Assembly (NCBI GenBank): GCA_018672055.1
Contig: JABHGM010000001.1
Coordinates: forward strand, 736,977-800,976
DNA from: a bacterium
Lineage (GTDB): Bacteria; Patescibacteriota; Patescibacteriia; UBA1558; UBA10009
DNA length: 64,000 nt
Direction: 5' to 3'
Position 1 is the stretch's first letter. Every line of letters starts with the position of its first letter. A program made the translations under genes and the position numbers. Of the stretch, positions 11,096 to 29,436 are shown piece by piece. The notes beneath the pieces were generated by a model, which was given only the letters and a program-made list of their open reading frames with translations, searched no databases and was not told where the DNA came from.

Positions 11096-11107
11096 AGTAG
11101 TAGGTTT

Positions 11108-11795: not shown

Positions 11796-14219
11796 TTTAG
11801 ATTTGTTTAATTTTTTCTTTCTTTTTCTTTCCCATTCTTCGTGCCACTCTGTATGCCAAGAAGGCATTTTCAAATAAATTTGTTGCGTGGCATTGCATAG
11901 ATTAATAAGACCTGGTATACGATCATGTTCTTTCTTTGTTTTTTTATCCCAGCAATAAGGTGGTCCCAATTGATTTAATAACTCATTACCAGTTAAAATT
12001 AAAACAGGATTAATAGGTCTTTCTGACTTCCAATATTTTCTTCCTGATTTAGTGATTTTTTTTAGTTCTATAATTTCATTTCTTGTTAGTGATTTTCGTA
12101 AAGTACTAAAAACTAATATAGCGCCTGGAAAAGTTTTTGCTAGATATCGCATTCTTGTAAAATCTTTTTTTTCAAACATTCCATATGTTTTGCACTCACT
12201 AAACAATAAGCCATCTTTTTTCTGACCGTAAACTGAATCCTGCCAAAATGCTGCAAAATCTGCTTCTATATTTTCTTTGTCAGCAGTAATAGCAGAAAAA
12301 CTTAATAATGGTGTTATACGCATCGTGGTCATTTTATATTCATTGAAAAAATCTAGTGCTAAAAGAACTGCATAAGCACCTTCTGCATAATTCGGTATAC
12401 TAAATGGTCCAACAGTCTTATAACACCATATAGAGTTTTCTAAATTACCAATAGCAGAAAAATCATTGAGACATAATTGACACAAAAAGTTATTACTAAT
12501 TTTTTCAAGCTCAAACCAGGACTTTCTTGAACAATATGGACATTTAATACGTATCCCTAATTTAAATACTCCTTTTTCAACTAAATAATTATGTAACTTG
12601 TCACCTCTTGTTTTATCACTCAATCTTCTTTTTATTTCGCCAATTGGCATTTCTCTTTCTTGATTGATCTTATTATTTGCTTTTGGACTTCCAGCTATAT
12701 TTACACTACCACCATTCATATGCTCAAAAATGTTTAGTAGCTTTTCATTTTTTAAAGTTGATAAATAACCATTAAGTTGTTTATGAATTTGCTTTGCTAA
12801 TTTTCCTGAAGACGATAATTTTGGTTCCCATCCTAAATCTTTCAGCCAAGCAATAACAATATTTTCAGATAATGGAATATTTATTGTTTCGTTAGAATTA
12901 TCTTCAACAAGTCTCACGAGTCCGTTATTTCCAACTCGCCAATTACCTCGTAAAGCCATAAGGCCAGATATCTCTCGTATAAAATTTTTAGCAGAAGATT
13001 TAGGAAAAACTTCTGCAATATATTCATCTGCACCATAAAAACTAAATATAACTTCATTTGCACAACGTGGATTTCCATGATAACTGTATTTATCAGCAAA
13101 ATCTGGCAGTAAAGTAGTGAATCTTATATTATTTTTCAAATCTGCAACATCAAATGATTCTTCTTGACTACCATATATATTGTCTGGTATTGCACCATCT
13201 TTATCACGAGCCCACTCATCCCAAACCCTTGGATACCAATGTTGTAGTACGTAAAAACTATCTTTAGATAGGTCATTAGAATCTGGTTTTATTTTTATGG
13301 TCTTTGCAAAATTTTCAACCTCCTCCATCGTACAATTACGTGATCTGATAATTGAAGCCCTATCACAAACGGTCGGATTATGTTTCCATGGACGACGATA
13401 CATTTTTAAAAAATTAATAACAATTTTTTTTATTACAGGCTCACTCTTCATCTGTTTTGCTACAGGCATCACCACTCTACCCATTGCCCTTAAATTCCAA
13501 TAATCAACTATATCTTCAACCTTGTTTGCATCCATAAAGTAAATACAAGCATCTCTACCAAAACGTGTATGGCTATTATTATTTATTTTGTGTAGCGTAA
13601 TTCTACGTGGAAACAAAATATTGTTCTTTAACATTTTATTTAAATTTTTAATTTCAAATTTTGGAGTCTCTATTTCAAGTGGTCCATAATAATGTTTTTT
13701 TAAATTTGGAATTACCTCAGGTAAAATTTCACCAAAAAAACTAGACCAAAATAAAGAATATTTTCTTGGTAATTCAGGAAATGCAATTTTCATTGGATAT
13801 TTCATTTTATATTTAAAGTCTTGTTCAAAAATATCATCTAATATTTCATAAATACCAAGCCCATATGAAGGGATTAAATTAAAATCTTCATTTATATTAT
13901 CCCAAATTTCATTTGATTTTATAATTTTTAAACCACTATCAACAATATATTTAGGAACTGATTTTGATAATTGTATAAGAATATCCGGATCAAATGCATC
14001 AAGATAACCGAGTATTACATCTTTTGCTAAAGGAGCTTTTATGGTTCCATCTTTCCATGTAGCAGGCATTATTTTATATAATTGTATAATTGGAAAAAAA
14101 GATCCCCCCCACAAAGTTGAGCTTAATTGAATTGCCTTTTTAACTTGTGTCGAACTTTTTGGATCAACTAAAAAAGCAATTTTCAATGGCCTAGTTTTAA
14201 TATTAATTGTACCTATCAT
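11778..14219 (-). CDS. Large cytoplasmic protein of unknown function with an internal zinc ribbon and a basic C-terminal tail.
   Basis: 813 aa with no TM and no Walker motifs. CPYCSRKS...CQLC zinc-ribbon. C-terminal RKRKKKLNKSKSKRKT. Sits between the glycan cluster and the R-M operon with its own terminator. Confidence 0.5.
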   Translation of the reverse strand: MIGTINIKTRPLKIAFLVDPKSSTQVKKAIQLSSTLWGGSFFPIIQLYKIMPATWKDGTIKAPLAKDVILGYLDAFDPDILIQLSKSVPKYIVDSGLKIIKSNEIWDNINEDFNLIPSYGLGIYEILDDIFEQDFKYKMKYPMKIAFPELPRKYSLFWSSFFGEILPEVIPNLKKHYYGPLEIETPKFEIKNLNKMLKNNILFPRRITLHKINNNSHTRFGRDACIYFMDANKVEDIVDYWNLRAMGRVVMPVAKQMKSEPVIKKIVINFLKMYRRPWKHNPTVCDRASIIRSRNCTMEEVENFAKTIKIKPDSNDLSKDSFYVLQHWYPRVWDEWARDKDGAIPDNIYGSQEESFDVADLKNNIRFTTLLPDFADKYSYHGNPRCANEVIFSFYGADEYIAEVFPKSSAKNFIREISGLMALRGNWRVGNNGLVRLVEDNSNETINIPLSENIVIAWLKDLGWEPKLSSSGKLAKQIHKQLNGYLSTLKNEKLLNIFEHMNGGSVNIAGSPKANNKINQEREMPIGEIKRRLSDKTRGDKLHNYLVEKGVFKLGIRIKCPYCSRKSWFELEKISNNFLCQLCLNDFSAIGNLENSIWCYKTVGPFSIPNYAEGAYAVLLALDFFNEYKMTTMRITPLLSFSAITADKENIEADFAAFWQDSVYGQKKDGLLFSECKTYGMFEKKDFTRMRYLAKTFPGAILVFSTLRKSLTRNEIIELKKITKSGRKYWKSERPINPVLILTGNELLNQLGPPYCWDKKTKKEHDRIPGLINLCNATQQIYLKMPSWHTEWHEEWERKRKKKLNKSKSKRKT

Positions 14220-14319: not shown

Positions 14320-15726
14320 TCACAACCCAATAACCTCCCCATCCATATCATGAAGTACCTCTACATTAAAATGATTTAATATAGTAGGTGCATAATCTAA
14401 TATATTAATATCTTTCTTACTATTTAATACACCTTCACCATAAGCTAAGAATATACCTTTTTTTTCATTTTCACCAGTCCAATGGTCTGGAGCCTCAAAA
14501 ACATGTTTAGAGCCTAAAGAACCACTAAAATGAGTATGAGGAGCTTGATCTACTATTAAATCAGGAGCTTTACTTAAATCAGAAGACTTATATATTTCTT
14601 CCCGAGTAAATACCTTATTTACTATACTCATACCCTTATACTCTAATTCTTCTAACTCACGTATTAATTTATTCTTAAATTCTAAGTCTTTACTTAGTAA
14701 GTATATAGGGCCTTGACCAGAAGCAAAACATTTAGAATTATCCCAATCTATTTTATCTGCTTTACCTGCATACATTACTTGTCCTTCTTTATTTGGTATC
14801 ATTTCTTGTACTTTACGTGGTACTAGTTTTTTAGCTAGTTCTTTTAAATGTAGCTTAGTAAATAGTTTAATTAAAGATTCTCGGTTAATACCTATTTTTT
14901 CTAGTTTGGAACTAGTATTATCTTGTTTAATCTTTAAATAGCCTTTTTCTTGTAAATACGTATTAATATTGAATTTAAATTTAATTTCATTAGTACCATG
15001 ATCAGACATTAAAAAGAATAATCTATCTGGGTACTTAGTAATTAATGAATTAATACCCTCATCTATTATTTGCCAAGCTTTAAATACTTTATCATCTCCA
15101 TAGTGGTAATGCTGTAATACGTTTATTAAATAAACAGCTACCATAAAGAAATCAAAGTTACCTTCTTTTAAAAGATACTCAGCAACTTCAAAACGTACTT
15201 TAATTAGTCTATATATTTCATCTATTACTGAAGTCTCATCTTTTTTCATTAAACTAATATTCTGAGGTAATGCTCTATAATCAAATTTATTCTTTAAAAG
15301 CTTTTCTAAAGGTTCAGGATAGGTATACTTAGATTCCATAGCATCTGGGCCACCTGAAACCATTACTCCATTTATTTTATGTGGCGGATAAGTTGTAGGC
15401 ATATTTACAACGCCTACTCGGTAACCAGCATCGGATAAGTAATCAAATATTTCTTTACCTTTAAAATTGTCAGAAGAAGGTATATATATTTTTCTATTGG
15501 CTACATCTACGTTTTCCCACCAATAAACACCAAGTTTAGCTGGATTTAAACCTGTAGAAAAACATTTCCAATTTGGTGATGTTACTGGAGGAAGTTGTGA
15601 TTCTTGAATACCCCAAGTTCCTTGTGTCTGTAGTTTCTTAAATGTAGGTAGTTTATCTTCATCAATCCATTTTTGAATATAGTTCCAACTACCACCATCT
15701 AAACCTATTACTATTACTTTCTGCAT
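14320..15726 (-). CDS. Alkaline-phosphatase-superfamily enzyme (type I phosphodiesterase/nucleotide pyrophosphatase-like), last gene of the glycan operon.
   Basis: N-terminal IVIGLDGGSW metal-binding motif. SGGPDAM and LMSDHGTN motifs typical of the AlkP core. Overlaps the upstream GT gene by 13 nt. Confidence 0.55.
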   Translation of the reverse strand: MQKVIVIGLDGGSWNYIQKWIDEDKLPTFKKLQTQGTWGIQESQLPPVTSPNWKCFSTGLNPAKLGVYWWENVDVANRKIYIPSSDNFKGKEIFDYLSDAGYRVGVVNMPTTYPPHKINGVMVSGGPDAMESKYTYPEPLEKLLKNKFDYRALPQNISLMKKDETSVIDEIYRLIKVRFEVAEYLLKEGNFDFFMVAVYLINVLQHYHYGDDKVFKAWQIIDEGINSLITKYPDRLFFLMSDHGTNEIKFKFNINTYLQEKGYLKIKQDNTSSKLEKIGINRESLIKLFTKLHLKELAKKLVPRKVQEMIPNKEGQVMYAGKADKIDWDNSKCFASGQGPIYLLSKDLEFKNKLIRELEELEYKGMSIVNKVFTREEIYKSSDLSKAPDLIVDQAPHTHFSGSLGSKHVFEAPDHWTGENEKKGIFLAYGEGVLNSKKDINILDYAPTILNHFNVEVLHDMDGEVIGL

Positions 15727-16778
15727 ACTTTAGTAAAAATATTTATTATCTTATCTATTAAATTATATATATTATGGTTATCTATTACAATCTGTCTTAA
15801 AGCTTTACCTGTATTAATACGTTTATCTCTAGGTAACAAAGTAACTTCTTCTAATTTAGAAGCTAACTCTTTATAATTACCATGTTCAAACTGACATAAA
15901 GGAAAATCTTTTAAAATATCGCTATAACCTATATTTGAATTTATTACATATGTACCACATGACATAGCTTCTAAAACTGTTTTATCTAAACTTTTAGTAT
16001 TACCTGTATTTATAAATATATCTGCTTGCTTGTACTTAGTTACTATTTCTTTAAAAGGTATTGAACCTAAAAATTTAATATTTGGAGTAGCTATTTCTTT
16101 TAATTTATTTAAATATGCTTCTTGCGAAGTAAGACCAATGTCTCCTACTATTTCAATATTTAAATTAATTCCTTTTGTGCTTAATATTTTATCTGCTTCA
16201 ATAAGAGTTTCTATATTCTTAACAGGTGAAATTCTACCAACCCATAATACTTTTTTAACTTGTTCGTTACTTTCAGTAAAAGAAAACATATCTGTATCTA
16301 TGCCTTGTCCTGTTATAATACGTTTCTTAGTATTAATTGGAAAACCAGATTCAGATGAGGTTATTATATTCTTTACTAAGTATCTTGCAATTTTAGATTT
16401 AAAACTTAAGTTACCATGAGCTTTCCACCAAACAATTGGTTTTCTATATATAAAAGCAAGAGGCCAAATAAGTAATACGAATATTTCGCTCATGTGAACG
16501 AATATTACATCTACTTCCTTATTTCTAAATAAAGGTATTAACTTTGCGTAGAAGTTACGTATCTTACCTCTTTTGCCTTCACCTCTTTCTTTACCTAGAG
16601 ATATAACATTTATATTACTTTCTATACCAAGTGTCTCCCCTTTTTCTAAACAAACTGCGTTTACTTTTTGTGCACGTTTAGCAATTAAGTTAAGCCATTT
16701 AAAAAAAACAGATAGTATTGGATCTGAAGTGCCTACTTTTTGAGTAATGTATAATATTTTTAAATTGCTTTCTGCCAT
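15714..16778 (-). CDS. Glycosyltransferase, GT4 family (group 1).
   Basis: C-terminal EAMSCGTYVINSNIGY...(E-x7-E region) typical of GT-B/GT4. Translationally coupled to its neighbours. Confidence 0.65.
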   Translation of the reverse strand: MAESNLKILYITQKVGTSDPILSVFFKWLNLIAKRAQKVNAVCLEKGETLGIESNINVISLGKERGEGKRGKIRNFYAKLIPLFRNKEVDVIFVHMSEIFVLLIWPLAFIYRKPIVWWKAHGNLSFKSKIARYLVKNIITSSESGFPINTKKRIITGQGIDTDMFSFTESNEQVKKVLWVGRISPVKNIETLIEADKILSTKGINLNIEIVGDIGLTSQEAYLNKLKEIATPNIKFLGSIPFKEIVTKYKQADIFINTGNTKSLDKTVLEAMSCGTYVINSNIGYSDILKDFPLCQFEHGNYKELASKLEEVTLLPRDKRINTGKALRQIVIDNHNIYNLIDKIINIFTKVCRK

Positions 16779-17866
16779 GCTTCTACTTGTAAATTTAATA
16801 ATTCATCTTCTGTTGGTAACTTACTTATCACACTCAAACTGTTAGAAGATATAGTTTGTTCAAGTTCTTTATCCTCTATTATTCTCTCCATAGCTTTAAT
16901 TAGTTCTTCTTCATTATTTGGCTTAATAATTAAACCATTTTCTTCGTTTTTAACGATTTCTCCGGCTAAACCAACATCAGTCATAATAATAGGCAAACCA
17001 GCTGCTAAAGCCTCAATAACGGTTAAATTATAGCCCTCAGAGTAAGATGTAACCACATAAAGGTTAGCTGAATTATAATATGGGGCTAAATCTGTCTGCC
17101 AGCCCTCAAAATATACTTTATCCTCTATTTTTAAATCAGTTACTAATTGTTTTAATTTATTTTCTTGGCTACCAGTGCCTACCATAACTAAAGCTGAATT
17201 AGAATTATTTAACTTTTTAAATGAGTTAATTAATAATTCATAATTCTTTTCAGCTTCAAATCTACCTACTGTTAGAATAATATATTTATTATTAAACTTA
17301 TCTCTTAAATGGTTTTCGTTCGGCTTATTAAATTCATCTAAATCTACATATATGGGAGCAATGGTTATTCTCTTATAATCTATTTTAAACTTTTTTAAGC
17401 TAGTAGCTATTCTTTTACTTACCACTCTTATGGAACCGGCACTAGGTAGAGTTTTTTTAGCAAGTCTCATTCTTATTTTATTCTTTAAGCTTTTTTCTAA
17501 CCAATAATTTGTAGAAAAGAAATCGCCATGTATTTGAATATTTAAACCTATTTTAAATTTCTTTTTAAGCTTTAAACCTACCCAAGCTGTTTCAAAAGGA
17601 TCTTGTGTAGTTACTAAGTCATACTTATTTAATTTATAAAGTTTTTTTGAAAGCTTTAAAGCATGAGATGGATAAAATAATTTATTATTTGTCTTAGTTG
17701 AATGTACGAAAATATTATCTGCTAGTTTTAAATTATTTACTTTCTGTTTACTATACACAACTATATCTAAACGTTCTACTAAACCTGCATATTTTTTAAT
17801 ACGCTTTGCTACTCTAGAATCTAAATTTAAAATAGCTTCATCTAAGCTAAGCATTAATACTTTCAT
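16760..17866 (-). CDS. Glycosyltransferase, GT4 family.
   Basis: TSYSEGYNLTVIEALAAGLPIIMTDVGLAGEIV motif. Confidence 0.7.
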   Translation of the reverse strand: MKVLMLSLDEAILNLDSRVAKRIKKYAGLVERLDIVVYSKQKVNNLKLADNIFVHSTKTNNKLFYPSHALKLSKKLYKLNKYDLVTTQDPFETAWVGLKLKKKFKIGLNIQIHGDFFSTNYWLEKSLKNKIRMRLAKKTLPSAGSIRVVSKRIATSLKKFKIDYKRITIAPIYVDLDEFNKPNENHLRDKFNNKYIILTVGRFEAEKNYELLINSFKKLNNSNSALVMVGTGSQENKLKQLVTDLKIEDKVYFEGWQTDLAPYYNSANLYVVTSYSEGYNLTVIEALAAGLPIIMTDVGLAGEIVKNEENGLIIKPNNEEELIKAMERIIEDKELEQTISSNSLSVISKLPTEDELLNLQVEAWQKAI

Positions 17867-18996
17867 ATATTTTTTAATATTTTATTTGTTTCTTCTACCA
17901 TATTATTAAAAGTAAACTTATTTAATACTTCTTTACCTTTTTCTATAAACTCAGCTTGTTTACTAGGATCACTTAAAAGAGAATCTATTTTTGTAAATAT
18001 CTCTTCTTTATTATTATATTCTACTAAGTAACCATTTATATTATCTTCTATTACCTCTGGGTTACCACCCATACGACTAGCAATAATTGGAACACTAGAA
18101 GCTAGAGCTTCAAGTAAAACATGAGGCAGACCTTCGTATCCACTATTTAAAAGAAATATAGAAGCTTGGGCATAATAATCTCCTACTTTGTCGTGATCTA
18201 CTTGTCCGACTAATTTAACAGAGTTCTCTAAATTTAATTTATTTATTAAATTATTTAAATTATTTTTTAGAGGACCGTCGCCAACTATGTTAAATAATAT
18301 ATCAGGATACTTATCTTTTAACTTAGGTATTACTTCTATAATAGCTTCTAAGCCTTTCCAGTTAGTTAAACGCCCTACATAGAGTAAATTGTTTTTTTCT
18401 TTTTCTAAATTATTAGTATTTAAAGATTCAAATGAATTATATACTACTTGTATACTATTATCTGGTACTTCCCATTTAGAAATAATAGATTTAAGGTATT
18501 TACTGGGTGTTATTATTGTATTTACGTTTTTTGCTATATAGTGCTCTATATATTTTAATACTTCTATATTAAATGAATACTTTTTATCTTGAAAATCATC
18601 TAATAGCTCTGGTATATCATATTCATTCTTTGCTCGTTCCCAAGCAACGTCACCGACTACTTTAACTACTACTTTAATATTTAAAAACCATTTAACTAAA
18701 ATAGCTGGTATGCCTGAGGCGAATAATCCTTGAGCGTAAATTAAATCAGCTTTTTTTGCTAAATGGTGTAGTTGTCTAAAATAATTAAAGTATTTAAATA
18801 ATATATTAGTTTGTCTTGGTATTTTAAATACCTTATAACCATCAATATTTTCTAAAGTACTTTCCTCTACATCAGCATAAGTTACAACTTGTACTTCATT
18901 GCCTAATTTTAAAAGCTCTGGAACAATACGTGTTACATAGGTTGCTGGACCACCTGGATCTGGTGGAAATATTTCTGAAGCAATTATTATTCTCAT
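17863..18996 (-). CDS. Glycosyltransferase, GT4 family.
   Basis: SGYEGLPHVLLEALASSVPIIASRMGGNPEVIED motif. Confidence 0.7.
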   Translation of the reverse strand: MRIIIASEIFPPDPGGPATYVTRIVPELLKLGNEVQVVTYADVEESTLENIDGYKVFKIPRQTNILFKYFNYFRQLHHLAKKADLIYAQGLFASGIPAILVKWFLNIKVVVKVVGDVAWERAKNEYDIPELLDDFQDKKYSFNIEVLKYIEHYIAKNVNTIITPSKYLKSIISKWEVPDNSIQVVYNSFESLNTNNLEKEKNNLLYVGRLTNWKGLEAIIEVIPKLKDKYPDILFNIVGDGPLKNNLNNLINKLNLENSVKLVGQVDHDKVGDYYAQASIFLLNSGYEGLPHVLLEALASSVPIIASRMGGNPEVIEDNINGYLVEYNNKEEIFTKIDSLLSDPSKQAEFIEKGKEVLNKFTFNNMVEETNKILKNI

Positions 18997-20732
18997 AATG
19001 ATAAATATTTTTTACCTAGTTTCTTAGCTTCTTCTTTATTATAGAATCTTTTAACATCAAATAGGATTGGTTTTTCATTCATAAAAGATTTTAATTTTTC
19101 TAAGGTTAGCTCCTTAAATTCTTTATGTGGAGAAAATACTATAATAGCATCTAAATTATTTAATTCATCTATTGTATTATTCTTTTGTCCAAAGAAACTA
19201 CTAATAAATTCTGGGTTAGCTATTGGATCATGAATTAATACTTCTACATTATTTCTTTTTAATTCAACTAATAATTCTTTAGCCTTACTATTTCTTAAAT
19301 CAGGTACATCTTCTTTAAAGGTTAAACCTAGTATTAATACTCTAGACTTACTTAATTCTTTACCAGCTTCTTTTAAGCTTTCCATTACTTGGTTAGCAAC
19401 ATATGTAGGCATGTAATCATTTACTTCTCTACCCATTAAGATGAACTTTGGATTTAAACCAGATTCTATTGATCTATTTGTTAAATAATATGGATCTACG
19501 CTAATACAATGCCCACCAACTAGTCCCGGTGAATATTTAACAAAGTTCCATTTAGTATCTGCTGCTTCAATTACTTCTTTAGTATCAATATCTAATTTAT
19601 TAAAAATCATAGATATTTCATTCATTAAAGCAATATTTGAATCTCTTTGTACATTCTCTAATATTTTAGTAGCTTCTGCTGCTTTAATAGAAGAAACTGG
19701 ATGAACCCCTGCAGTTATTACTGAACTATACATCTTGGAAATAGTATCTAGAGCTTCTTTATTAGAAGCACTAACTACTTTTATTATTTTATCTAAAGGA
19801 TGTTCAAAGTCACCTGGATTAATACGTTCTGGTGAGTAACCGACTGAAAAATCTTGATTAAACTTAAGACCTGATTCATTTTCTAAAATTGGAATACATA
19901 TTTCTTCTGTACAACCTGGGTAAACAGTACTTTCGTATGTAACAATAGAACCTTTTCTTAAATTTCTACCTACTATACGACTAGCATCTTTTAAGAAAGT
20001 AAGGTCTGGATTTTTATGCTCATCAATAGGTGTTGGTACTGCTACTATAATAATATTCGATTCTTTTATTATGTTAGGATCAAAACTATACTTAATACCA
20101 TATTGTTTTAAATCTTTTATTTCATTTGTTCTATCGTGCCCATTATTTAATTCTTCAATCTTTTTTTCATCAACATCAAAACCAGATACTTCATATTCTT
20201 TAGATAATAAACAAGCTAGTGGTAAACCAACGTAGCCTAGACCTACAATACATATTTTATTATCCATATTCTTTTTATTATGTTTAAATGTTAAATTTTT
20301 GTTACCAAGAAAATTCCATATCATATTTGCTAATGAACTAAATACACGAGCCCAGATATACCACATAGCAAAATATTCTACTAAGAAATATAGGATGGTA
20401 TTATTTATTAATAGACCAATACCAACTACTAAAAAAAATATACTTATTTGTCTTATAAATCTTGGATCTTGACTATTAAATGTCCATTTTCTATTTAAAA
20501 AGTAATTTGTTAAAGCAGCTAGAACAAAAGATATAACTCCAGAGTACAGATACCAAATACCTAAATACTCAGTTAAAGTATATAGGAAAAAGAAATCTAC
20601 TATAGTAGCTAATACACCAACTAAACAATATCTAAAAAAAATATCCCAACTTTTACAACTAATATTTACTTTAATTTTTATTGATATTTTCTCTGCTATT
20701 TGTGAAAAAAATACAATTATTTTATCTATCAT
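18993..20732 (-). CDS. Fusion protein: GtrA-like membrane domain plus a nucleotide-sugar 6-dehydrogenase of the TviB/WbpA/WecC-like clade.
   Basis: N-terminus has 4 TM with LVGVLATIVDFFFLY...NRKWTF (GtrA family). Then Rossmann KICIVGLGYVGLPLA and catalytic GGHCISVDPYYL. Confidence 0.65.
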   Translation of the reverse strand: MIDKIIVFFSQIAEKISIKIKVNISCKSWDIFFRYCLVGVLATIVDFFFLYTLTEYLGIWYLYSGVISFVLAALTNYFLNRKWTFNSQDPRFIRQISIFFLVVGIGLLINNTILYFLVEYFAMWYIWARVFSSLANMIWNFLGNKNLTFKHNKKNMDNKICIVGLGYVGLPLACLLSKEYEVSGFDVDEKKIEELNNGHDRTNEIKDLKQYGIKYSFDPNIIKESNIIIVAVPTPIDEHKNPDLTFLKDASRIVGRNLRKGSIVTYESTVYPGCTEEICIPILENESGLKFNQDFSVGYSPERINPGDFEHPLDKIIKVVSASNKEALDTISKMYSSVITAGVHPVSSIKAAEATKILENVQRDSNIALMNEISMIFNKLDIDTKEVIEAADTKWNFVKYSPGLVGGHCISVDPYYLTNRSIESGLNPKFILMGREVNDYMPTYVANQVMESLKEAGKELSKSRVLILGLTFKEDVPDLRNSKAKELLVELKRNNVEVLIHDPIANPEFISSFFGQKNNTIDELNNLDAIIVFSPHKEFKELTLEKLKSFMNEKPILFDVKRFYNKEEAKKLGKKYLSL

Positions 20733-20819
20733 GTAATTTTAGAGCTTGATTAAATTAAAAAAAAATTATACTCTGTTATTATAGTTAAAAACACCTATTT
20801 AAGTCAATATACATAAAAA

Positions 20820-21974
20820 ATGGAAAATAAGCAAAAAATAATATATTTAATTACCAAGTCTGAGTGGGGCGGAGCTCAGAAGTATATTTTTAATTTAGCA
20901 ACTAACTTAGATAAGGATAAGTATGATGTTTTAGTTTTAGCTGGTGAAGGTAATGATGAATTATTTAATAGGTTAAAAGAAAGTGAAGTAGATTATATTA
21001 AACTAGATAGTTTGAAAAGAGCAATTAGTTTAAAACAAGATTTTAAAGCTTTTAATGAGATATATAAAATTCTTAAAAAAGAAAAGCCAGATGTTATACA
21101 TTTAAATAGCTCTAAGATAAGTATTCTTGGTTCACTGGCTGCTAAAAGATATAATACATTTAGAAGAGATAAAGCAAAAGTAATCTATACTGTCCATGGT
21201 TGGGTATTTAATGAACCATTATCCCCTTTTAAACAAAGAATGTATTTCTACTTAGAAAAATGGACTAGCAGATTTAAAGATATAATAATATGTGTTTCTG
21301 AGCTTGATAAACAAATAGCTACGGCTGCTAATATAGCTTTAGAGGATAAGTTAGTTACTATCCATAATGGAATTGATTTAAAGAATTTAAAATTCTTAAA
21401 TACGAAGCTTGCTAAACAAATATTACTTCAGAATATAAAACGTGATGGTAAGTTTACTATAATCGGAACTATTGCAAATTTATATAAAACAAAAGGATTA
21501 AATAGTTTAATTCAAGCTGCCGGAACTCTTGTAAAGCATAATAATAATCTATTATTTATAGTAATTGGTGAAGGCCCTGAAAGAAAAAACTTAGAAAATT
21601 TAATTAAAGAATATAATCTAGAAAAGAATTTCTATTTAACTGGTAATATAGATAAAGCATATACACTACTAAAAGGTTTTGATATATTTGTACTACCTTC
21701 AGTTAAAGAAGGTTGGCCATACACTATTTTAGAAGCCCTAGCTGCTGAAGTACCAATTATTGCTACTAAGGTAGGTGGTATACCTGAGATTATAAATGAT
21801 TTAAGTAATGGTATTTTAATTAAACCAGGAAGTTATAAAAATATAGCATATGCTATAGCTGAGATAATTGATAATCCTGTTTTAAAAAAAGATTTTAAGA
21901 AAAACTCTCTACTCTCAGTTTCAAAATATAATTTAGAAGACTTTTTACAACAAACATATAATATATATAAATAG
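20820..21974 (+). CDS. Glycosyltransferase, GT4 family (the only plus-strand gene in the cluster).
   Basis: EGWPYTILEALAAEVPIIATKVGGIPEII motif. Confidence 0.7.
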   Translation: MENKQKIIYLITKSEWGGAQKYIFNLATNLDKDKYDVLVLAGEGNDELFNRLKESEVDYIKLDSLKRAISLKQDFKAFNEIYKILKKEKPDVIHLNSSKISILGSLAAKRYNTFRRDKAKVIYTVHGWVFNEPLSPFKQRMYFYLEKWTSRFKDIIICVSELDKQIATAANIALEDKLVTIHNGIDLKNLKFLNTKLAKQILLQNIKRDGKFTIIGTIANLYKTKGLNSLIQAAGTLVKHNNNLLFIVIGEGPERKNLENLIKEYNLEKNFYLTGNIDKAYTLLKGFDIFVLPSVKEGWPYTILEALAAEVPIIATKVGGIPEIINDLSNGILIKPGSYKNIAYAIAEIIDNPVLKKDFKKNSLLSVSKYNLEDFLQQTYNIYK

Positions 21975-21980
21975 GTAAAC

Positions 21981-22013
21981 AAAAAACTCAAGTTATTAAA
22001 CTTGAGTTTTTTT
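21981..22013. terminator. Bidirectional intrinsic terminator between the convergent GT4 and TPR genes.
   Basis: AAAAACTCAAGTtattaaACTTGAGTTTTTTT. Confidence 0.5.
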
Positions 22014-22020
22014 ATATATT

Positions 22021-22710
22021 CTATTGTCCTAATAATCCTCTAACCTCTTCTATTTCTAAATTAACTAGATCTTTCATTTCTTGTTCTGGTGCATGCTCTA
22101 CAAATAACTGTAAATATTCTAAAGCCTTTTCATTATTAGCCATTTCTCTTAAATATGAAGAGTAGAAATAAATTAATTGATAATCATTATTTGTTTTTAC
22201 AATACCTTCTTCAAATATATCCATTACCCTCTGAGTATTATTATAGTCTTGTGCTTTATATACTTTAGCTAAATTAAAATATACTAAGTAGTATGTATCA
22301 CTTAAAGATCTGGCTACTTCAAAAGATGCAATGGTTTCGTCATACATAGCTAATCTATAATAGACATTACCTATATTTAACCAAGGTGTACTATTGGTTG
22401 GAATTAATTCGGATGCTTGTTTAAAATATTCTATAGCTTGTGTAGCATTACCTAATTCTCTTTCAATATTTCCTAAATCTAAATATGAGGTATAGTTACC
22501 TGGAAATAATTCTAAATCACTTAAATTCTTATCTCTTCTGTCCTCAAAATCTTTTCTAGCTTCTTCAGACATATTAACTTCTAGGAATAAGCCTTGTTCT
22601 GTATTATTAACGATATCAAAATTATTTTTAGTAAAATAAAATACTGCTAATACTATAATAATTAGTATTACTATAATATAAAATAATTTATTATTGATCT
22701 TGTTCATCAT
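22021..22710 (-). CDS. TPR-repeat protein with an N-terminal membrane anchor.
   Basis: N-terminal TM (LFYIIVILIIIVLAVFYF) followed by TPR-like A/Y/L periodicity. Confidence 0.5.
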   Translation of the reverse strand: MMNKINNKLFYIIVILIIIVLAVFYFTKNNFDIVNNTEQGLFLEVNMSEEARKDFEDRRDKNLSDLELFPGNYTSYLDLGNIERELGNATQAIEYFKQASELIPTNSTPWLNIGNVYYRLAMYDETIASFEVARSLSDTYYLVYFNLAKVYKAQDYNNTQRVMDIFEEGIVKTNNDYQLIYFYSSYLREMANNEKALEYLQLFVEHAPEQEMKDLVNLEIEEVRGLLGQ

Positions 22711-24982
22711 ATTGATTTTTTATTAATTGTTCTATTTCTTTATATGACTGTAAAGCATTGTAACTATAGCCTGGGTTAATTTTAGATGCTTGTTTTAAAA
22801 TTACTAAAGCTTCTTCATATTGTAAATCCATAACATATAAGCCAACTAAATTATTCCAATGATTTAAATCGGTTGGATCAATCTCAGTTAAAATCGTAAC
22901 TACATTAATTAATTGTTCAACATCTTGTCTTTCATCAAAATAATTTAATAGTTCAAATATATCATTATTTGAAAACGGATAATTATGTTCCATCATTTTT
23001 TTATACATCTCTCCTTGACCATCTACATTACCTTGAGCCTTATAAATAATTGATTTATAGTAATAATTTTGAGCTGTTCCCTCATTAATATTTATAGCTA
23101 TATCTATATTCTCTATAGCTAAATCATATTGCTCATTTAAAAGATACATTTGTGCAATTACCCAATATGGTCTAATTCTATTAGCAGCATATTCTTTAGA
23201 TTCAACAGCAAAGTAAAGGCCCTTGTCAAAATATTCCATATCACCTGTTAATTCAAAAAGATGAGAATAATTTTTAGACTGAATATAATAAAGATACATA
23301 TTAGATGAATCTAAATCTAAAGCTCTATCCATTAAACTAGCAGCTATTTTAAAATTACTAATCTTTGTTTCTGGAGATGCAAAAAAGTTTTGATTATAAA
23401 ATGATTCATCTAAAGCACTAGAAAATAAATGAGCTGGATCTATCTTATTAACTGCTACATCTGCTGCTTGCTTATAATGTTCAACCATTGTTTCGTAATC
23501 AACTCTACCCTTGTCTCTAAATGTTTCAAATATTGAATTATTTGCTTTAACTTCTACTAAATTAATACTAAAGAATAACCAAGTAAAACTAATTATAACT
23601 AAAGGTATTGTTAAAATAGGTCTGGCTAATACCTTAGACTCATTTAAAGACTCATTATTATCTTGAATATACAAACTATAAACAAAGGCAAGTAGTAAAT
23701 AGAATAAGATTAAACTATTTAAAGAATCAAAGACAAATAAATTTTGAATAAAGTATGTTATAAATAATAAGCTAAGTATAATAAATGAAGAATCTGAAAG
23801 TAATTTCCTTTTAAGTAAATTAATTAAATAATAAAATAATGCAATAAAAATTGATAGATAACTAAGCAAACCAAATATACCCATCATTACACCAATGTCA
23901 ATTACTGTATTATGTGATCTATCAAACCAAACTTCATCACCAGTATAATCATAAAATTCAGGATTAATATATTCATTAAAAACATTTTGAAAATTTTCAG
24001 AGCCAACACCTAATAATAAATTATCTTTAAAGCCTTCATAACCTGCTTGCCAAGAAAGAAGTCTAGTTTGTACTGTATTATCTTCTAAAGAATAATTAGT
24101 AAGTCTATTTAAAAAATAATTATCTTTTATAAATGAATTGCTTCTTAAAGCAAATAATGATGAGCCTAGTAGAACTAATATACTTACACCTATTAACATG
24201 TACTTAATTCCTTTATTATTTCTCCATAACTTTAAAACTAAACTAAATATAATGAAAATAATAAGAGAAATAAATAAAGCTAGCTGAGCACCACGAGTAG
24301 CTGCTAAAAATATATTAATTAAAACTAAAACAAATGAAATAATATAAAATATTTTGTATTTAATATCTTTTACTTTAAATAAGTATAATAAAGATATAAA
24401 TAAGTGAAATATTAAATAACTAGATAATAAAGAAGCATTACCAATAGTACTTTTAACTCTGTCTATACCTGCTTCAAATACAAAATTTAAACCTAACATC
24501 TGGGCTATACCATATAAACAAATAACTATAGATGTTACTAATGAAAAATCTAATATCCTCTTCCAAGCTATTTGGGTTTTAAATACTGATATTAAAATTA
24601 AAAACCAAACAAAATAATGGAGATAATTAAATGTACCCATCATTCTTTCCCAATTACCCCACCAACTTCTAGCAATGCTATCTCCAGTAAAAGTAGTTAC
24701 TAACATAACAACAAAGAAAGCTATTAAACTCCATAATAAGAATGATTTTTTAGGTAAATATTTTCTATTAAATAATACTAATACTAAATAAATACCAAAC
24801 AGTAATTCAATAACTATCCTTAAGAGGATAGTCTTTTGAATAACGTATGGAAAATATGATTGAGGTATAAAAATTGCAGGTATAAAAACAATAAAATAAC
24901 TACCCCAAATAAGTAATTTTTTAAGTATATTTTCTAGTTTTAAGCTATTATTTTCTAGCATAAGTATTAATATAAGATACAC
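22691..24982 (-). CDS. Wzy_C/O-antigen-ligase-like polytopic membrane protein fused to C-terminal TPR repeats. Candidate O-oligosaccharyltransferase or polymerase.
   Basis: At least 10 TM. LAATRGAQLALFISL loop typical of Wzy_C/O-antigen ligase. C-terminal ~300 aa is TPR-like. Confidence 0.55.
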   Translation of the reverse strand: MYLILILMLENNSLKLENILKKLLIWGSYFIVFIPAIFIPQSYFPYVIQKTILLRIVIELLFGIYLVLVLFNRKYLPKKSFLLWSLIAFFVVMLVTTFTGDSIARSWWGNWERMMGTFNYLHYFVWFLILISVFKTQIAWKRILDFSLVTSIVICLYGIAQMLGLNFVFEAGIDRVKSTIGNASLLSSYLIFHLFISLLYLFKVKDIKYKIFYIISFVLVLINIFLAATRGAQLALFISLIIFIIFSLVLKLWRNNKGIKYMLIGVSILVLLGSSLFALRSNSFIKDNYFLNRLTNYSLEDNTVQTRLLSWQAGYEGFKDNLLLGVGSENFQNVFNEYINPEFYDYTGDEVWFDRSHNTVIDIGVMMGIFGLLSYLSIFIALFYYLINLLKRKLLSDSSFIILSLLFITYFIQNLFVFDSLNSLILFYLLLAFVYSLYIQDNNESLNESKVLARPILTIPLVIISFTWLFFSINLVEVKANNSIFETFRDKGRVDYETMVEHYKQAADVAVNKIDPAHLFSSALDESFYNQNFFASPETKISNFKIAASLMDRALDLDSSNMYLYYIQSKNYSHLFELTGDMEYFDKGLYFAVESKEYAANRIRPYWVIAQMYLLNEQYDLAIENIDIAININEGTAQNYYYKSIIYKAQGNVDGQGEMYKKMMEHNYPFSNNDIFELLNYFDERQDVEQLINVVTILTEIDPTDLNHWNNLVGLYVMDLQYEEALVILKQASKINPGYSYNALQSYKEIEQLIKNQYDEQDQ

Positions 24983-25004
24983 TATTATTATATATTATTC
25001 AAGC

Positions 25005-25036
25005 AACTCAAAACCCCCTGCCAAAAGGCAGGGGGT
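25005..25036 (-). terminator. Strong GC hairpin terminator after the surface-protein gene.
   Basis: CCCCCTGCCaaaaGGCAGGGGG followed by a T-run on the minus strand. Confidence 0.6.
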
Positions 25037-25075
25037 TTATTATTTCAACAGTATCTTGTAATTAAGTAATAGCTA

Positions 25076-28000
25076 TTAGTTAAGTACTCTAGTAACGTCT
25101 AAAGTCTTAATCTTATAACCATTGTACCAATCAGCTGAACTTGAATCATCAGCAGTAATATCGGCATGGGTATTATTACCATTAGTACCGGTATTATCTG
25201 ACCAAATCATATAAGCTGCAGCATCAGTAGTACCACTAGCATCATCAGTTAAACAGAATTTGCCAGGTACACCACTAACACCAGTTGCATCACAATGAGC
25301 TGTGATGTAATTATAGGCTGTGGTTGAAGAATCACCATCATTCAAGTACATACTAATAGAGTCACTACTGGAAGCTCCAGTATTAACATTACCAGCTGTT
25401 GCTTTTAAGATGAAATACTTACTAGAACCAGCACTGATTAATCTATCATCATTAAAGACAACGATTACATCATGAGAAGTTGAAGAAGTATTACCAGCAT
25501 AGTTTTGATAAACAACACCAGTTGAAGCACTTAATTTACCACCTGTACCAGTACCATTAGCAGTTGTAGTTGTTACACCATAACCGTTATAGACTTGGTA
25601 ACCATCAGTTGCAGTATCACTTTGTGTTAAGACAGTAGCAGCACTATAACTTGAACCTTCATAAACTTGGAAGTTTGTAAGACTCAAGGTAGATGTAGTT
25701 TGAACTGAATCAGTAAGACTTAACTTAAATGATAATTTCTTCAAGCTTAATGCAGTACCACCTTCAGGAGCGCTAACTTGGAATCTGTATAATTCGGCAG
25801 GACCATTAATTAAACTTGCATTTGTAGTATTATCAGCAGTAAATGTTGGTACTGTACCCATTACAGTCATAACGCTACCAGCTCTATCAGTTGTATCAGA
25901 TGGAGCAGTTAGGCTAGTACTTCCAGAATCAGCACTCTTAGCTTCAAAGTTAGCATCACTATCAAAGTTAGCATAAATTTCATCACCAGAATAAGTAGCA
26001 TTAGTTTGATTGATAGCAGGAATATTGAAGTATACATTCATTATTCTATATGTATTAGCTGGGATATAGAATGGATTTGTTGTGATATTGAAGTCAGCGT
26101 TACCACTAATTTCAACATTATTTGCAGTTATAGTTTCACCAGCTTCATTCATGTAACCAATAGTAACTGAATCTACAGCTCTATTACCATCAGCTTGTAA
26201 CTGTTGGATTCTAACCTTATTAAGGTTGAATGCTTCGTTAACAGCTTGAAACTTAAGGTTAAGCATAGGTACATCAGAAGTACCAGCAACTACATTAGCA
26301 ATTGAAGGGTTACTTTCGGTAGTAACATTCAAAGTACCTGCATCAGAAATAAGAACGTAATAAGAACTGGCTACTAATGTAGCAGAACCATTACCATCAG
26401 CAATAGCCCAAGCAGTACCATCATTATCAGTTAAAGTAACATCTGTACCTGTGTCATCATTAATTGATACACCGGCAGCAGTAGCTACATTAATCTTTAC
26501 AGTCTTATTAACTGAACATCCATTTGTATAAGCAGTATTAACTGTATCACCAACAACTCTCATGACATGAGTCTCACCACCTGGAATAGTCCAATTAACA
26601 TTGGAGAAGGTTGCTGCACCTGTAGCAGATGCAAAACTTTCGATGGTTGAATTTAGATTATTAGTCATGTCTGGATCAGCAGTAATATCATACAATGCTA
26701 GAGATGAAATTAGGTTGTTAACAGTTGTATAAACAGCTGCACCACAATCTTGACGTCTTACGACAACATTAGTGGTGTCAGTACCAACATAACCATATAA
26801 AGTTAAGCCAGTTATTGTCATATCTGAACCTGAACCTGCGTTGAAAGCAAATTCACCTAAATTAACATCTTCTGTACCTTGAACTACTGTAACACCAGCA
26901 GCATTACTAGCTAGGGCAATACCTAGAGAAGCAGCTGCTACTGTCATATCATTACCTGTAGTATGAGTAGTAGGGACAATATCAGTAATCCATTGGTTAT
27001 TATCAGTATTCTTAATACCATCAGTTGTATTAATGGTATAAGTACTTCCTGTACTACCTAAAGTAGCATAGTAATTACCGGTTGTACTTAAACTTACGTT
27101 TAAGTCAGCAACTACTTTGAAAGTTCTGGTTTGACCAGCATCAAAATTAAAGTAATCAGTATAGTCATAATAAATACCAGCATCTGATCCACTAATTTCA
27201 GTGAAAGTACCACAATCAACACCTGATGTTGAATCACCATTATCTACGTCAACGATCTTAACGTTAGAAATATAATTACTAGAAGTATCACAAGCAGTAT
27301 CATCATCATCAGTATCTAAGTCAGTAGAATCATTATGTAATTCAAGTCTTAACTTACGTAATTCAGCATTAACACCAGAAGTAATTGAAAAGTTTAATAA
27401 TTCTACTTCTGTACCACCTCTAGCAACAGTTGATGATTGAGGTCCATTTTTAGCAACAGTAATTTGACCACCTTGAACAGTTAAGGTTGTTGTATCAGCA
27501 TCACCACTAACACCATCATAATCACCTGAAGTTACACCAGCACCATAACCATAGAATGAACCTACAGCTAATAGATCGGATGTATTTTCTAAGTAGATCT
27601 TAGTAGTATCACCGTTTCTAGAATCACCACTTATATCACCATAAATCTTAAAAATACGATTTGTATTTTTTTCTAAGATAAATGGACTATCACTTAAATC
27701 AAACACAACTAAACTGTTACTTGTAATACCACTAACAGTACCAAGCAAATCTGCGCCTTGATAAAGCTCTAAATCAGTAATATAAGTACTATTAATACTA
27801 CCAGCTTGATATAGAGTAATTCTACTAATTTCAAGATTTTCAGCAGAACCAGCAGTTAACTTGAATTGAGCAATTTGTGCATTTTGTTGAGCTACAGTTG
27901 GGTTTGCAAGAGTACCATTTTTTGCAATGGTAATTGTACCTGCAACACTTGAACCCAATGTTAATGTGTTACTAACTAATGGAAATGAACCATTAATAGC

Positions 28001-29131
28001 AGCATCAGAACTAACATCATCACTACCTACTTCAAAATAACTAAAGTTACCAGCAGTAGCTGAATTTAAATCAGCAACTAAAGAAACAACCTTAGTTGTA
28101 CCTGCTGGTACATTAAAGTCTAGGTTAATAAATGTAGCTTTATGAGTAGAGCTATTTATAGACTTACCTGAGGTTAGTCTTGTAGCACCATCATAAATAT
28201 ATAAGTTGGAGAAATCACCAGTTGCACCAACACCTCTTCTGGTGAAGGTTAAACCGTCAAGATCAACAGCACCATCAGAAGAAGCAGTTACATTAATTTT
28301 CATTAAAGTAACACCAGTTGCTGATAATGGACCAACTTGTGCGCCAGGATTATCTGAAGCTAAAGCAACAGTTAAACCTGAACCACCAACTACTGTACCA
28401 GGATCGGTAGCACCAGTTGCTGGGTTTGCTAAAGCATCTTCTGTAGCTGTTACAGAAGTACCGTCGCTATATGCTGATAAATCAGTTACAGCAATAACAT
28501 AATCAGCATTAAAACGATTACCAGTCATACCTGCATCTGTTACAGGTCTCTTGGAATCGCCATCAATATAATATACTTGATCATCCATTTGAACCAAAGT
28601 ACCACTTGGGTAAGTTGATGCAGCAGTTAAAGCAGCGCCTGTTGCGCTATAACCACCTGCTAAGTAAGTAGGTACTGCGAAAATCATTGATTCCCAGTTA
28701 GCACCATACAAAGCAACAGCAGCTTCGGCTGAGTCAAGTTTGTGTAATAAACCATCAACAGCAACGCCATAAACTTCAGGAGTATTAGCAGTCAAAAATT
28801 GACTACCATCACTTGAAATTTCAACATACTGTAATAGTTTAGCACCAGGTCTTACGGTAACAGAAGCACCTAAAGTGTAAGAAGTCATTTCATCTTGAGC
28901 AACTGTGACGACATCGCCAAAGTCTTCATACCAAGACATAAATTCTCTTTCACTTGGAAAAGGATGCTTGAAACCGTCAGCGTCTAAATAATAGACAGCT
29001 GTATAACCTTCGGTTTTAATTAGATCTCCAGCTGAAGCAACGTTTTCGGCAGCAACAGGTGTAAAAGCTACACCCATTAAACCAATAACGGCAACCATGG
29101 AGATCAAGAAAGCTTTCTTGATTAAATTCAT
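25076..29131 (-). CDS. Giant secreted T/S/G/A/N/D-rich cell-surface protein. S-layer-like glycoprotein candidate.
   Basis: 1351 aa. Signal peptide MNLIKKAFLISMVAVIGLMGVAFTPVAAEN. Very Thr/Ser/Gly-rich and low in charge. Local GC is higher than its surroundings. Good RBS AAGGAAA. Dedicated strong terminator. Confidence 0.55.
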   Translation of the reverse strand: MNLIKKAFLISMVAVIGLMGVAFTPVAAENVASAGDLIKTEGYTAVYYLDADGFKHPFPSEREFMSWYEDFGDVVTVAQDEMTSYTLGASVTVRPGAKLLQYVEISSDGSQFLTANTPEVYGVAVDGLLHKLDSAEAAVALYGANWESMIFAVPTYLAGGYSATGAALTAASTYPSGTLVQMDDQVYYIDGDSKRPVTDAGMTGNRFNADYVIAVTDLSAYSDGTSVTATEDALANPATGATDPGTVVGGSGLTVALASDNPGAQVGPLSATGVTLMKINVTASSDGAVDLDGLTFTRRGVGATGDFSNLYIYDGATRLTSGKSINSSTHKATFINLDFNVPAGTTKVVSLVADLNSATAGNFSYFEVGSDDVSSDAAINGSFPLVSNTLTLGSSVAGTITIAKNGTLANPTVAQQNAQIAQFKLTAGSAENLEISRITLYQAGSINSTYITDLELYQGADLLGTVSGITSNSLVVFDLSDSPFILEKNTNRIFKIYGDISGDSRNGDTTKIYLENTSDLLAVGSFYGYGAGVTSGDYDGVSGDADTTTLTVQGGQITVAKNGPQSSTVARGGTEVELLNFSITSGVNAELRKLRLELHNDSTDLDTDDDDTACDTSSNYISNVKIVDVDNGDSTSGVDCGTFTEISGSDAGIYYDYTDYFNFDAGQTRTFKVVADLNVSLSTTGNYYATLGSTGSTYTINTTDGIKNTDNNQWITDIVPTTHTTGNDMTVAAASLGIALASNAAGVTVVQGTEDVNLGEFAFNAGSGSDMTITGLTLYGYVGTDTTNVVVRRQDCGAAVYTTVNNLISSLALYDITADPDMTNNLNSTIESFASATGAATFSNVNWTIPGGETHVMRVVGDTVNTAYTNGCSVNKTVKINVATAAGVSINDDTGTDVTLTDNDGTAWAIADGNGSATLVASSYYVLISDAGTLNVTTESNPSIANVVAGTSDVPMLNLKFQAVNEAFNLNKVRIQQLQADGNRAVDSVTIGYMNEAGETITANNVEISGNADFNITTNPFYIPANTYRIMNVYFNIPAINQTNATYSGDEIYANFDSDANFEAKSADSGSTSLTAPSDTTDRAGSVMTVMGTVPTFTADNTTNASLINGPAELYRFQVSAPEGGTALSLKKLSFKLSLTDSVQTTSTLSLTNFQVYEGSSYSAATVLTQSDTATDGYQVYNGYGVTTTTANGTGTGGKLSASTGVVYQNYAGNTSSTSHDVIVVFNDDRLISAGSSKYFILKATAGNVNTGASSSDSISMYLNDGDSSTTAYNYITAHCDATGVSGVPGKFCLTDDASGTTDAAAYMIWSDNTGTNGNNTHADITADDSSSADWYNGYKIKTLDVTRVLN

Positions 29132-29436
29132 ATTTATTTCCTTTGTTAACTTATTTACTCAACTAATCTCTTAAAAACAATTAATTTACTCACACTATTT
29201 CTTAGTGATTTTGCATTTAAAATCTCGACCTTTACTAATTAATAATTAAGGTAATTGTTCCTAATATGAGACGAGCGCAAATAAATAAGCTTTATAATAT
29301 CGATTAGATTATAATTTAAATTTACTAATCGACTTATTAATTATTTAACACGTCCTTAAATTGGACATTATTAACACATTTTTAATTTACATAAATACTT
29401 AAATGGGATTTCCATTTAAGTAAACCATGTATATCT

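Follow-up and report, generated by a model that had tools for sequence, protein, structure and literature searches.

A candidate S-layer glycoprotein system of Patescibacteria: a secreted surface protein and its conserved Wzy_C/TPR neighbour

The window analysed here is a 64,000-nucleotide stretch of contig JABHGM010000001.1 (assembly GCA_018672055.1, positions 736,977 to 800,976) from an uncultivated, ultra-small bacterium of the Patescibacteriota, within the Candidate Phyla Radiation (CPR). About 28% of it is GC, its minus strand carries most of the genes, and an Rfam scan of the window returned one tRNA and nothing else. On this strand lies the gene of a 1351-aa secreted surface protein, here called BIG (25076-29131, minus), which by its signal, fold and family is a candidate surface-layer (S-layer) protein, and beside it stands a cluster of genes for building and transferring glycans. 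An initial annotation had read the two as a glycosylated S-layer-like protein with its own glycosylation system. All genes and domains it listed, including the assignments of the Wzy_C (PF04932) and TPR domains, were recovered at the same positions in the list of open reading frames (ORFs) and in Pfam and NCBIfam searches. Because the pairing of BIG with a gene for a Wzy_C membrane enzyme recurs across the phylum, we regard BIG and the Wzy_C/glycan genes as a good but unproven candidate for an S-layer glycoprotein system of Patescibacteria.

Read along the minus strand, BIG is followed by the gene of a membrane enzyme that joins a Wzy_C domain to a C-terminal TPR domain, a candidate O-oligosaccharyltransferase (22691-24982; in public records its start lies 7 codons downstream of the GTG, P0121, 756 aa). 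Overlapping this gene by 20 nt is that of TPR229, a 229-aa TPR protein with an N-terminal membrane anchor (22021-22710, minus). A family 4 glycosyltransferase (GT4) gene, GT4d (20820-21974), lies on the plus strand and is convergent with the TPR gene, as had been described, and a bidirectional hairpin terminator stands between the two (21981-22012). Beyond it the minus strand encodes a GtrA domain fused to a nucleotide-sugar dehydrogenase (18993-20732; PF04138 with PF03721, PF00984 and PF03720), three coupled GT4 enzymes (15714-16778, 16760-17866 and 17863-18996) and a predicted cytoplasmic enzyme of the AlkP/phosphodiesterase family (14320-15726; PF01663 Phosphodiest, 114 bits). The last four form the translationally coupled block GT4c-GT4b-GT4a-AlkP (14320-18996), and from the AlkP gene up to the dehydrogenase gene the start/stop overlaps are 13, 19, 4 and 4 nt. 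The cluster had been taken for a single operon, but since the plus-strand GT4 gene and the hairpin at 21981-22012 intervene, there are at least two transcription units, WzyC-TPR229 and GtrA/dehydrogenase-GT4x3-AlkP. The big gene had also been placed directly after the cluster; it does adjoin the cluster, but in the direction of transcription it lies upstream of it.

The surface protein and its relatives

BIG starts with a Sec-type signal (MNLIKKAFLISMVAVIGLMGVAFTPVAA/EN; signal peptide aa 1-28), continues with a triple-repeat module that is a putative wall anchor (aa ~30-246, nt 28394-29044) and with a body of roughly nine beta-sandwich domains (aa ~250-1290), and closes with a conserved motif. 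The signal peptide, a strong ribosome-binding site (AAGGA) and a GC-rich terminator of its own had been reported from the first reading, and they stand; the last is a palindromic intrinsic terminator with a 12-bp stem containing 8 GC pairs between BIG and the Wzy_C gene (25011-25038). The protein had been called extremely rich in Thr, Ser and Gly. Enrichment is present (T 12.7, A 10.4, S 9.7 and G 9.5%), with T+S at 22% or about twice the local background, but "extremely" overstates it. BIG is acidic (144 D+E against 59 K+R) and poor in Lys and Cys. Its Gly codons are GGT in 88% of cases, compared to 60% in other genes (p = 3.5e-9), which puts BIG on a par with ribosomal proteins L10 and L7/L12; among the amino acids tested, the difference was significant for Gly alone. 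This codon usage is a hint of high expression.

No family in Pfam or NCBIfam matched BIG, whole or cut in four pieces, and a sequence profile of 107 BIG homologs found nothing in the PDB. BIG belongs to a large set of Patescibacteria proteins annotated as hypothetical: an exhaustive HMMER scan of 1.84 billion representatives (clusters at 50% identity) returned 1557 clusters at E <= 1e-3 and 381 at E <= 1e-30. The closest relatives, with 49-56% identity, are mostly labelled Candidatus Komeilibacteria, and distant homologs occur in Uhrbacteria, Peregrinibacteria, Jorgensen-, Wolfe-, Lipton-, Harrison- and Wildermuthbacteria and Paceibacterota. Nearly all members are 1100-1600 aa long and their match begins at residue 160-320, so that the architecture is fixed as an N-terminal module of ~160-320 aa followed by the conserved body. 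We annotated the ORFs of 52 loci encoding BIG relatives (labelled L with a number) with the proteins of the window.

The part that changes between relatives is the N-terminal module. The version in the window, compact and ~215 aa long, consists of three ~70-aa repeats (model pLDDT 93) and has no Pfam hit. Orthologs of the Paceibacteria type carry a coiled coil and PG_binding_1 at this position (PF01471; 24-50 bits in five of the six tested, the sixth, at 21.7 bits, being just under the 23-bit cutoff), and in Peregrinibacteria three SLH domains take the place, the shared body beginning at query residue 253. By analogy with these anchors the triple repeat may itself be a wall-binding module. A homolog search with the N-terminal module alone returned only 4 proteins. 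Four to five copies of the window-type repeat occur in a Bacillota protein, fused to a GH18-like hydrolase domain (assigned by its DGITIDFE motif), and the model of the triple repeat weakly resembles the repeat domains of EccB1, its best fold match. The EccB1 repeats have been likened to PlyCB, a protein that binds the wall, which we take as a lead only. The exchange of N-terminal modules on a conserved body resembles a pattern typical of S-layer proteins. The modular S-layer proteins of Bacillota (SLH, CWB2 and others) likewise combine a lattice-type body with alternative N-terminal anchors, often in three copies; the body of BIG, however, is a separate family, and one of its three anchor types is unannotated in Pfam.

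The AlphaFold2 model of residues 245-1351, built with the 107 homologs, is all-beta and has roughly nine beta-sandwich domains (pLDDT 89). Foldseek comparison of this Ig array with the PDB found only generic Ig-like arrays with TM below 0.2, among them PrgB, antigen I/II (C123), integrins and complement, and no solved S-layer protein matched BIG either by fold (Foldseek/PDB) or by sequence profile. Since PrgB and antigen I/II are adhesin Ig arrays, BIG could be a wall-anchored adhesin or fibril for contact with hosts or particles rather than part of a lattice, and its neighbours might glycosylate it all the same. CPR bacteria are thought to attach to hosts, and a second BIG-like gene in some loci (L043) would also suit an adhesin. 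We consider this quite unlikely, because the family keeps a near-constant length and the same end-to-end domain order across class-level lineages, whereas adhesins usually vary in the number of repeats. The ribosomal-protein-like Gly codon bias also speaks against an adhesin, as does the combination of anchor swapping with a monocistronic layout and a strong terminator, which is typical of S-layer genes (PMC2943079). So do the S-layer reported from CPR cells and a preprint on an S-layer protein class of Paceibacterales (both described below).

The C-terminal motif of BIG, (F/I/M)xWSD...H...DWxNG(Y), lies within aa 1295-1340 (25112-25249) and reads here IWSD..H..(S/T/D-rich)..DWxNGY (aa 1308-1340). 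The S/T/D-rich loop between WSD and DWxNG is short, has low model confidence and is a candidate site of modification or interaction. The motif is common to the repeat-type and PG_binding_1-type homologs inspected and absent in L039 and in the SLH-type homolog. We looked for a tie between this motif and the presence of Wzy_C next to BIG and dismissed it: L039-L041 have no motif yet hold three to four Wzy_C genes, and L001-L005 have the motif and no adjacent Wzy_C gene.

The gene pair across Patescibacteria

The pairing of BIG with a Wzy_C gene is conserved and has a direction. Sequence of 700 bp or more beyond the BIG stop codon was available for 43 loci, and in 32 of them a same-strand Wzy_C gene begins no more than 800 bp downstream; this gene is usually fused to TPR, and the gap from the BIG stop is typically 25-340 bp. 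A Wzy_C gene within 10 kb upstream of BIG was found in 1 of 38 loci. The lineages that share the adjacency (Jorgensen-, Wolfe-, Lipton-, Harrison-, Wildermuth- and Uhrbacteria and Paceibacterota) are only 28-35% identical in BIG. It was seen with PG_binding_1 anchors (22 of 24) as well as with repeat anchors (7 of 13), which indicates that it follows the body of BIG and not a particular anchor. In an Uhrbacteria locus even the order is that of the window, sigma-DUF5667-BIG-WzyC_TPR-GT4(-), with the addition of an Asn-synthase homolog. Conserved co-localisation had been suggested as a check of the original reading, and the difference between the downstream and upstream counts, across many Patescibacteria lineages, speaks for that reading.

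The same counts (32/43 against 1/38), in lineages so distant in BIG, effectively exclude that the adjacency arose by chance or from the kinship of close genomes and has no functional meaning. We thus hold this to be highly improbable, even though Wzy_C genes are common in CPR genomes and the four closest relatives of BIG (L001, L002, L004 and L005) are without the adjacency. In these four, BIG is directly followed either by GT4d or by two small secreted proteins rich in T, S and A. The latter lie between BIG and the glycan genes in L004 (14537-16372) and L005 (14478-16464) and measure 239-273 aa for the first and 362-365 aa for the second, which combines a PATPATPAT linker with a conserved domain at its C-terminus. 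Possibly both are additional components of the surface layer, standing there in place of the Wzy_C/TPR pair. In another locus, L058, an 807-aa gene downstream of BIG was considered as a diverged Wzy_C gene and rejected.

Many loci contain two to four Wzy_C paralogs in tandem, commonly one of ~750-850 aa with TPR and often a second of ~450 aa without it. Such a long and short pair would fit a polymerase and a ligase, as expected if the cluster made an anionic secondary wall polymer or a capsule (comparable with teichuronic acid or Vi antigen), in which case Wzy_C would be its polymerase or a polymer ligase. BIG would then be a neighbour through the common grouping of envelope genes, or because it binds the polymer. 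There are precedents for this in csaAB beside Bacillus S-layer genes and in the PSII locus beside slpA in C. difficile, and the terminator between BIG and the Wzy_C gene agrees with it. The adjacency is, however, directional, tight and independent of the anchor module. Its independence of the anchor argues against a link through an anchor-specific polymer, and proteins of the PG_binding_1 type would bind peptidoglycan directly, with no need for a special polymer. A wall polysaccharide as the product seems rather unlikely to us when these points are considered together with those from the enzymes below.

The candidate transferase and the glycan genes

By sequence the Wzy_C-TPR enzyme is a member of the Wzy_C/WaaL superfamily (PF04932, 73 bits with a cutoff of 31.7), and the ligase WaaL (PDB 7TPG), the only solved homolog, was the only match of its family profile among membrane-enzyme structures (E 1e-15 to 5e-19). 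Residues R230, R307 and H357 are invariant in an alignment of 24 CPR sequences and align to the GTRGA, VRLKIW (R-L-x-x-W) and EHAHN (H-A-H-N) motifs of WaaL; a broader alignment of 35 sequences again shows no variation at R307 and H357, and the TRGA motif is conserved in it too. These motifs hold the catalytic Arg/Arg/His of WaaL and PglL, which in E. coli WaaL are R215, R288 and H338 (PMC3643930). Hydropathy predicts 13 transmembrane (TM) helices with the N-terminus in and the C-terminus out, in agreement with the positive-inside rule, so that the catalytic loop 280-364 is predicted outside and the K/R-rich loops inside. The enzyme thus looks competent, as judged from its sequence. WaaL has 12 TM helices, no TPR and a lipid A-core acceptor, whereas CPR bacteria have no lipid A synthesis (PMC5220378) and the window enzyme has a thirteenth helix, which would place its ~290-aa TPR domain (aa ~474-763) outside the cell. 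The N-terminal membrane anchor of TPR229 would likewise put the TPR domain of that protein outside. Orthologous WzyC-TPR/TPR pairs were found in L006 and L056, and TPR-only neighbours in L010, L044 and L053.

The closest published parallels are the S-layer protein glycosylation (slg) loci of Firmicutes. There the S-layer genes are monocistronic and can adjoin slg clusters, WsfB of P. alvei is a Wzy_C protein with a C-terminal TPR domain, and WsaB of G. stearothermophilus has no TPR but is preceded by WsaA, a 168-aa TPR protein (PMC2943079). The window has both forms, fused and separate, matching the architecture of these S-layer O-oligosaccharyltransferases. TPR229 can be likened by its architecture to WsaA, and the window enzyme to WsfB and WsaB by domain architecture and gene position. 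Shared with slg loci are also the monocistronic gene of a candidate S-layer protein beside a glycan cluster, the GT4-type transferases and the nucleotide-sugar genes, and the Asn-synthase homolog of the Uhrbacteria locus resembles WsfA of the P. alvei slg locus. There are also differences. No homology to SgsE or SpaA could be detected for BIG, whose anchor module is of another kind; an initiating enzyme like WsaP/WsfP and a Wzm/Wzt exporter are both missing from the window; Wzy_C paralogs occur in tandem in related CPR loci, and upstream there is a sigma/DUF5667 pair.

Pilin-modifying enzymes offer a second comparison. PglL and TfpO (PilO) have the Wzy_C domain and the Arg/Arg/His, and their genes usually come immediately after the target gene, on the same strand; pglL-type genes adjoin the target gene in 21 of 31 genomes (PMC3643930). 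In the window, by comparison, the presumed target is a 1351-aa wall protein instead of a pilin, the organism is monoderm, and the PglL_A motif (PF15864) is absent, with no Pfam match at E <= 0.01. Membership in the PglL subgroup is therefore not supported, but PilO/TfpO is also without PglL_A (PMC3643930), which leaves room for O-oligosaccharyltransferase activity. TfpW of Pseudomonas aeruginosa is similarly polytopic, transfers glycosyl groups and bears a C-terminal TPR domain in the periplasm, and its gene comes directly after that of its target, pilA. It lies outside the Wzy_C family, however: it is of the GT-C type, akin to ArnT and Emb, and works with polyprenyl-P-arabinofuranose. An extracellular TPR domain fused to or beside Wzy_C is a published hallmark of WsfB, WsaA/WsaB and PglL O-oligosaccharyltransferases, and TPR is found in TfpW too; this counts against the window enzyme serving a wall polysaccharide. 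A further point against it is that in monoderms the ligation of wall polymers is normally done by LCP enzymes.

The GtrA-dehydrogenase passes the subfamily model TIGR03026 (388 bits, cutoff 190) and is closest to the UDP-GlcNAc 6-dehydrogenase TviB (NF011729, 414 bits, which is under the equivalog cutoff of 592), so we infer that it supplies a uronic acid of UDP-N-acetylhexosamine (HexNAc). A TviB-like dehydrogenase suggests uronic-acid sugars, which are typical of acidic wall polymers, and GtrA homologs act in the pathways of secondary cell wall polymers and teichoic acids; both points favour a wall polysaccharide. In L006 (8397-10265) dehydrogenase and GtrA are separate genes in reverse order, and the dehydrogenase of L004 (17740-19017) has no GtrA. 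The order GT4c-GT4b-GT4a-AlkP is kept in L002, L004 and L005, where AlkP is 67-80% identical, and GT4d is the most consistently conserved opposite-strand partner in related loci. In one close relative a WzyC-TPR/TPR228 pair stands away from BIG, beside genes for a Bac_transf phosphoglycosyltransferase, an ABC transporter, GtrA and GT2. From these neighbours the WzyC-TPR/TPR pair belongs in a lipid-linked glycan pathway; its place in a general glycan cluster would also suit a wall polysaccharide.

We give a probability of roughly 55% to the reading in which BIG is a wall-anchored layer, O-glycosylated by the Wzy_C-TPR enzyme with a locally built glycan. BIG would be exported by Sec and held on the wall by its N-terminal triple repeat, its Ig-like array would be the exposed layer, and it would form a proteinaceous surface layer or be a main part of one. 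The four GT4 enzymes, the UDP-GlcNAc-6-dehydrogenase-GtrA protein and the AlkP-family enzyme would build the glycan on a polyprenyl carrier at the cytoplasmic face, and the glycan would probably contain the HexNAc uronic acid supplied by the dehydrogenase. The Wzy_C-TPR enzyme and TPR229 would be an O-oligosaccharyltransferase module of the WsfB or WsaA-WsaB type, and after flipping, the Wzy_C loop with R230, R307 and H357 would move the undecaprenyl-pyrophosphate-linked glycan onto Ser, Thr or Tyr of BIG. The extracellular TPR domains may bind emerging or assembled BIG and so recruit the substrate. Genes for the initiating phosphoglycosyltransferase and for the flippase would lie in another part of the ~1-Mb genome.

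Several observations weigh against this S-layer glycoprotein reading. Besides the lack of a structural match to S-layer proteins, the missing Wzy_C gene after BIG in the four closest relatives and the absence of PglL_A, the one SLH-type homolog checked (P0119; L053/L054, two assemblies) has only a small TPR gene downstream, and L058 has neither a Wzy_C nor a TPR gene there. In the window a strong terminator also stands between BIG and the Wzy_C gene. A wall-binding role of BIG's own module is argued from analogy and from a weak match in fold (E 1e-3). The motif D[ST][AILVMT], known from O-glycosylation of the Bacteroidetes type, is not enriched in BIG (13 observed, 10.7 +/- 3.0 expected). Neither an initiating phosphoglycosyltransferase (PF02397/PF00953) nor a Wzx or ABC flippase was found among the cluster genes with Pfam and NCBIfam, and none was recognised among the other ORFs of at least 120 aa in the 64-kb window, most of which were judged by reading their translations; the cluster has only a GtrA domain. 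Finally, Wzy_C O-oligosaccharyltransferases, ligases and polymerases are inseparable by sequence (PMC3643930), and the family thus leaves room for a polymerase or ligase of a wall polysaccharide as well. The original proposal is thus supported in part: its S-layer-like half finds independent backing in the anchor swapping, the Ig array and the monocistronic gene with its own terminator, and no complete glycosylation pathway was recognised in the window.

A stronger form of the S-layer glycoprotein reading can be drawn as well, and we regard it as an improbable speculation. BIG and Wzy_C-TPR would be the core envelope module of most Patescibacteria, with BIG as the CPR S-layer protein that has long been sought. 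Beyond decorating BIG, the enzyme would load it covalently with a polymer that is long and probably rich in uronic acid, giving this S-layer glycoprotein the part that teichoic acids have in other monoderms. The S/T/D-rich C-terminal loop would be one candidate attachment site, and a dedicated pair of ECF sigma factor and DUF5667 anti-sigma factor would control the module.

The CPR surface is where ultra-small episymbionts meet hosts and phages. Cryo-electron microscopy of CPR cells by Luef et al. in 2015 reportedly revealed an S-layer. The cell envelope of CPR/Patescibacteria has been described as unresolved (PMC5220378), and a 2024 preprint presents a "completely novel class" of Paceibacterales S-layer protein on the same criteria of a signal peptide, an anchor and multiple Ig-like domains, a class that may or may not coincide with the BIG family. 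In the literature searched, no paper links CPR O-antigen-ligase genes to a surface protein, and new compared to it are the phylum-wide BIG family, the unannotated triple-repeat anchor, the conserved Wzy_C/TPR neighbour and the conserved upstream sigma/DUF5667 pair. A phylum-wide candidate S-layer family with exchangeable anchors and a Wzy_C/TPR neighbour provides a testable handle on the CPR envelope. If BIG is glycosylated as proposed, protein O-glycosylation of the Wzy_C type extends to a deep-branching monoderm phylum; if the cluster makes a wall polymer instead, the locus marks the synthesis of an unknown CPR wall polysaccharide.

Upstream genes and neighbourhood

Upstream of BIG lies a triad-forming pair of genes. 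The first is that of a 174-aa ECF-type sigma-70 family factor (30624-31148, minus), assigned from orthologs that carry PF04542 and PF08281, and it heads the order sigma-DUF5667-BIG. The second encodes a 393-aa DUF5667 protein (29437-30618, minus; PF18915, 37 bits) with one TM helix by hydropathy (aa 65-83) and is followed by a hairpin terminator (29396-29422). A sigma gene is found upstream of the BIG homolog in L001, L003-L005, L007-L009, L039, L040, L043, L045, L057 and L058, which span class-level CPR lineages, and in most of these a single-TM DUF5667 protein lies between sigma and BIG, none being detected in L008. Genes for LexA and DinB are often found just beyond the pair. The DUF5667 protein resembles an anti-sigma factor in its architecture, and the conserved sigma gene directly upstream of BIG therefore suggests that the pair is a dedicated regulator of the surface-protein gene.

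The promoter and long 5' leader of BIG (29132-29395, minus) were placed by alignment with Komeilibacteria relatives, and the leader was compared with the regions upstream of BIG in L001-L005 and L007. In the Komeilibacteria relatives the order is TTGACA-17-TATAAT and then a leader of ~400 nt with conserved blocks. The leader of BIG has the conserved box TAAAGGTCGAG, after which comes a hairpin that differs in sequence in each genome, and then the AAGGA ribosome-binding site, around which the stretch AAACGGA...TAACAAGGA is conserved. RNAalifold gave no supported consensus structure for the 5' leader (-0.2 kcal/mol).

Two neighbouring regions were noted in addition, and the genes of the first do not belong to the finding. 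On its downstream side the glycan cluster borders on a segment (6585-14219, minus) with a type III-like restriction-modification pair; the methylase seems to be split (11108-11476 and 9515-11095) and is followed by a 972-aa helicase/res subunit, and the same segment encodes an 813-aa cytoplasmic protein with no Pfam hit and no counterpart in related loci. At 34096-36885 (plus), on the strand opposite to its neighbours and where the GC skew flips locally, lies the gene of a 929-aa secreted protein with a C-terminal sorting domain of the type IX secretion system (Por_Secre_tail PF18962, 44.9 bits) and a dockerin-like segment. Such a domain is unexpected, as monoderm Patescibacteria should have no type IX secretion, and horizontal acquisition or re-use of the domain is possible.

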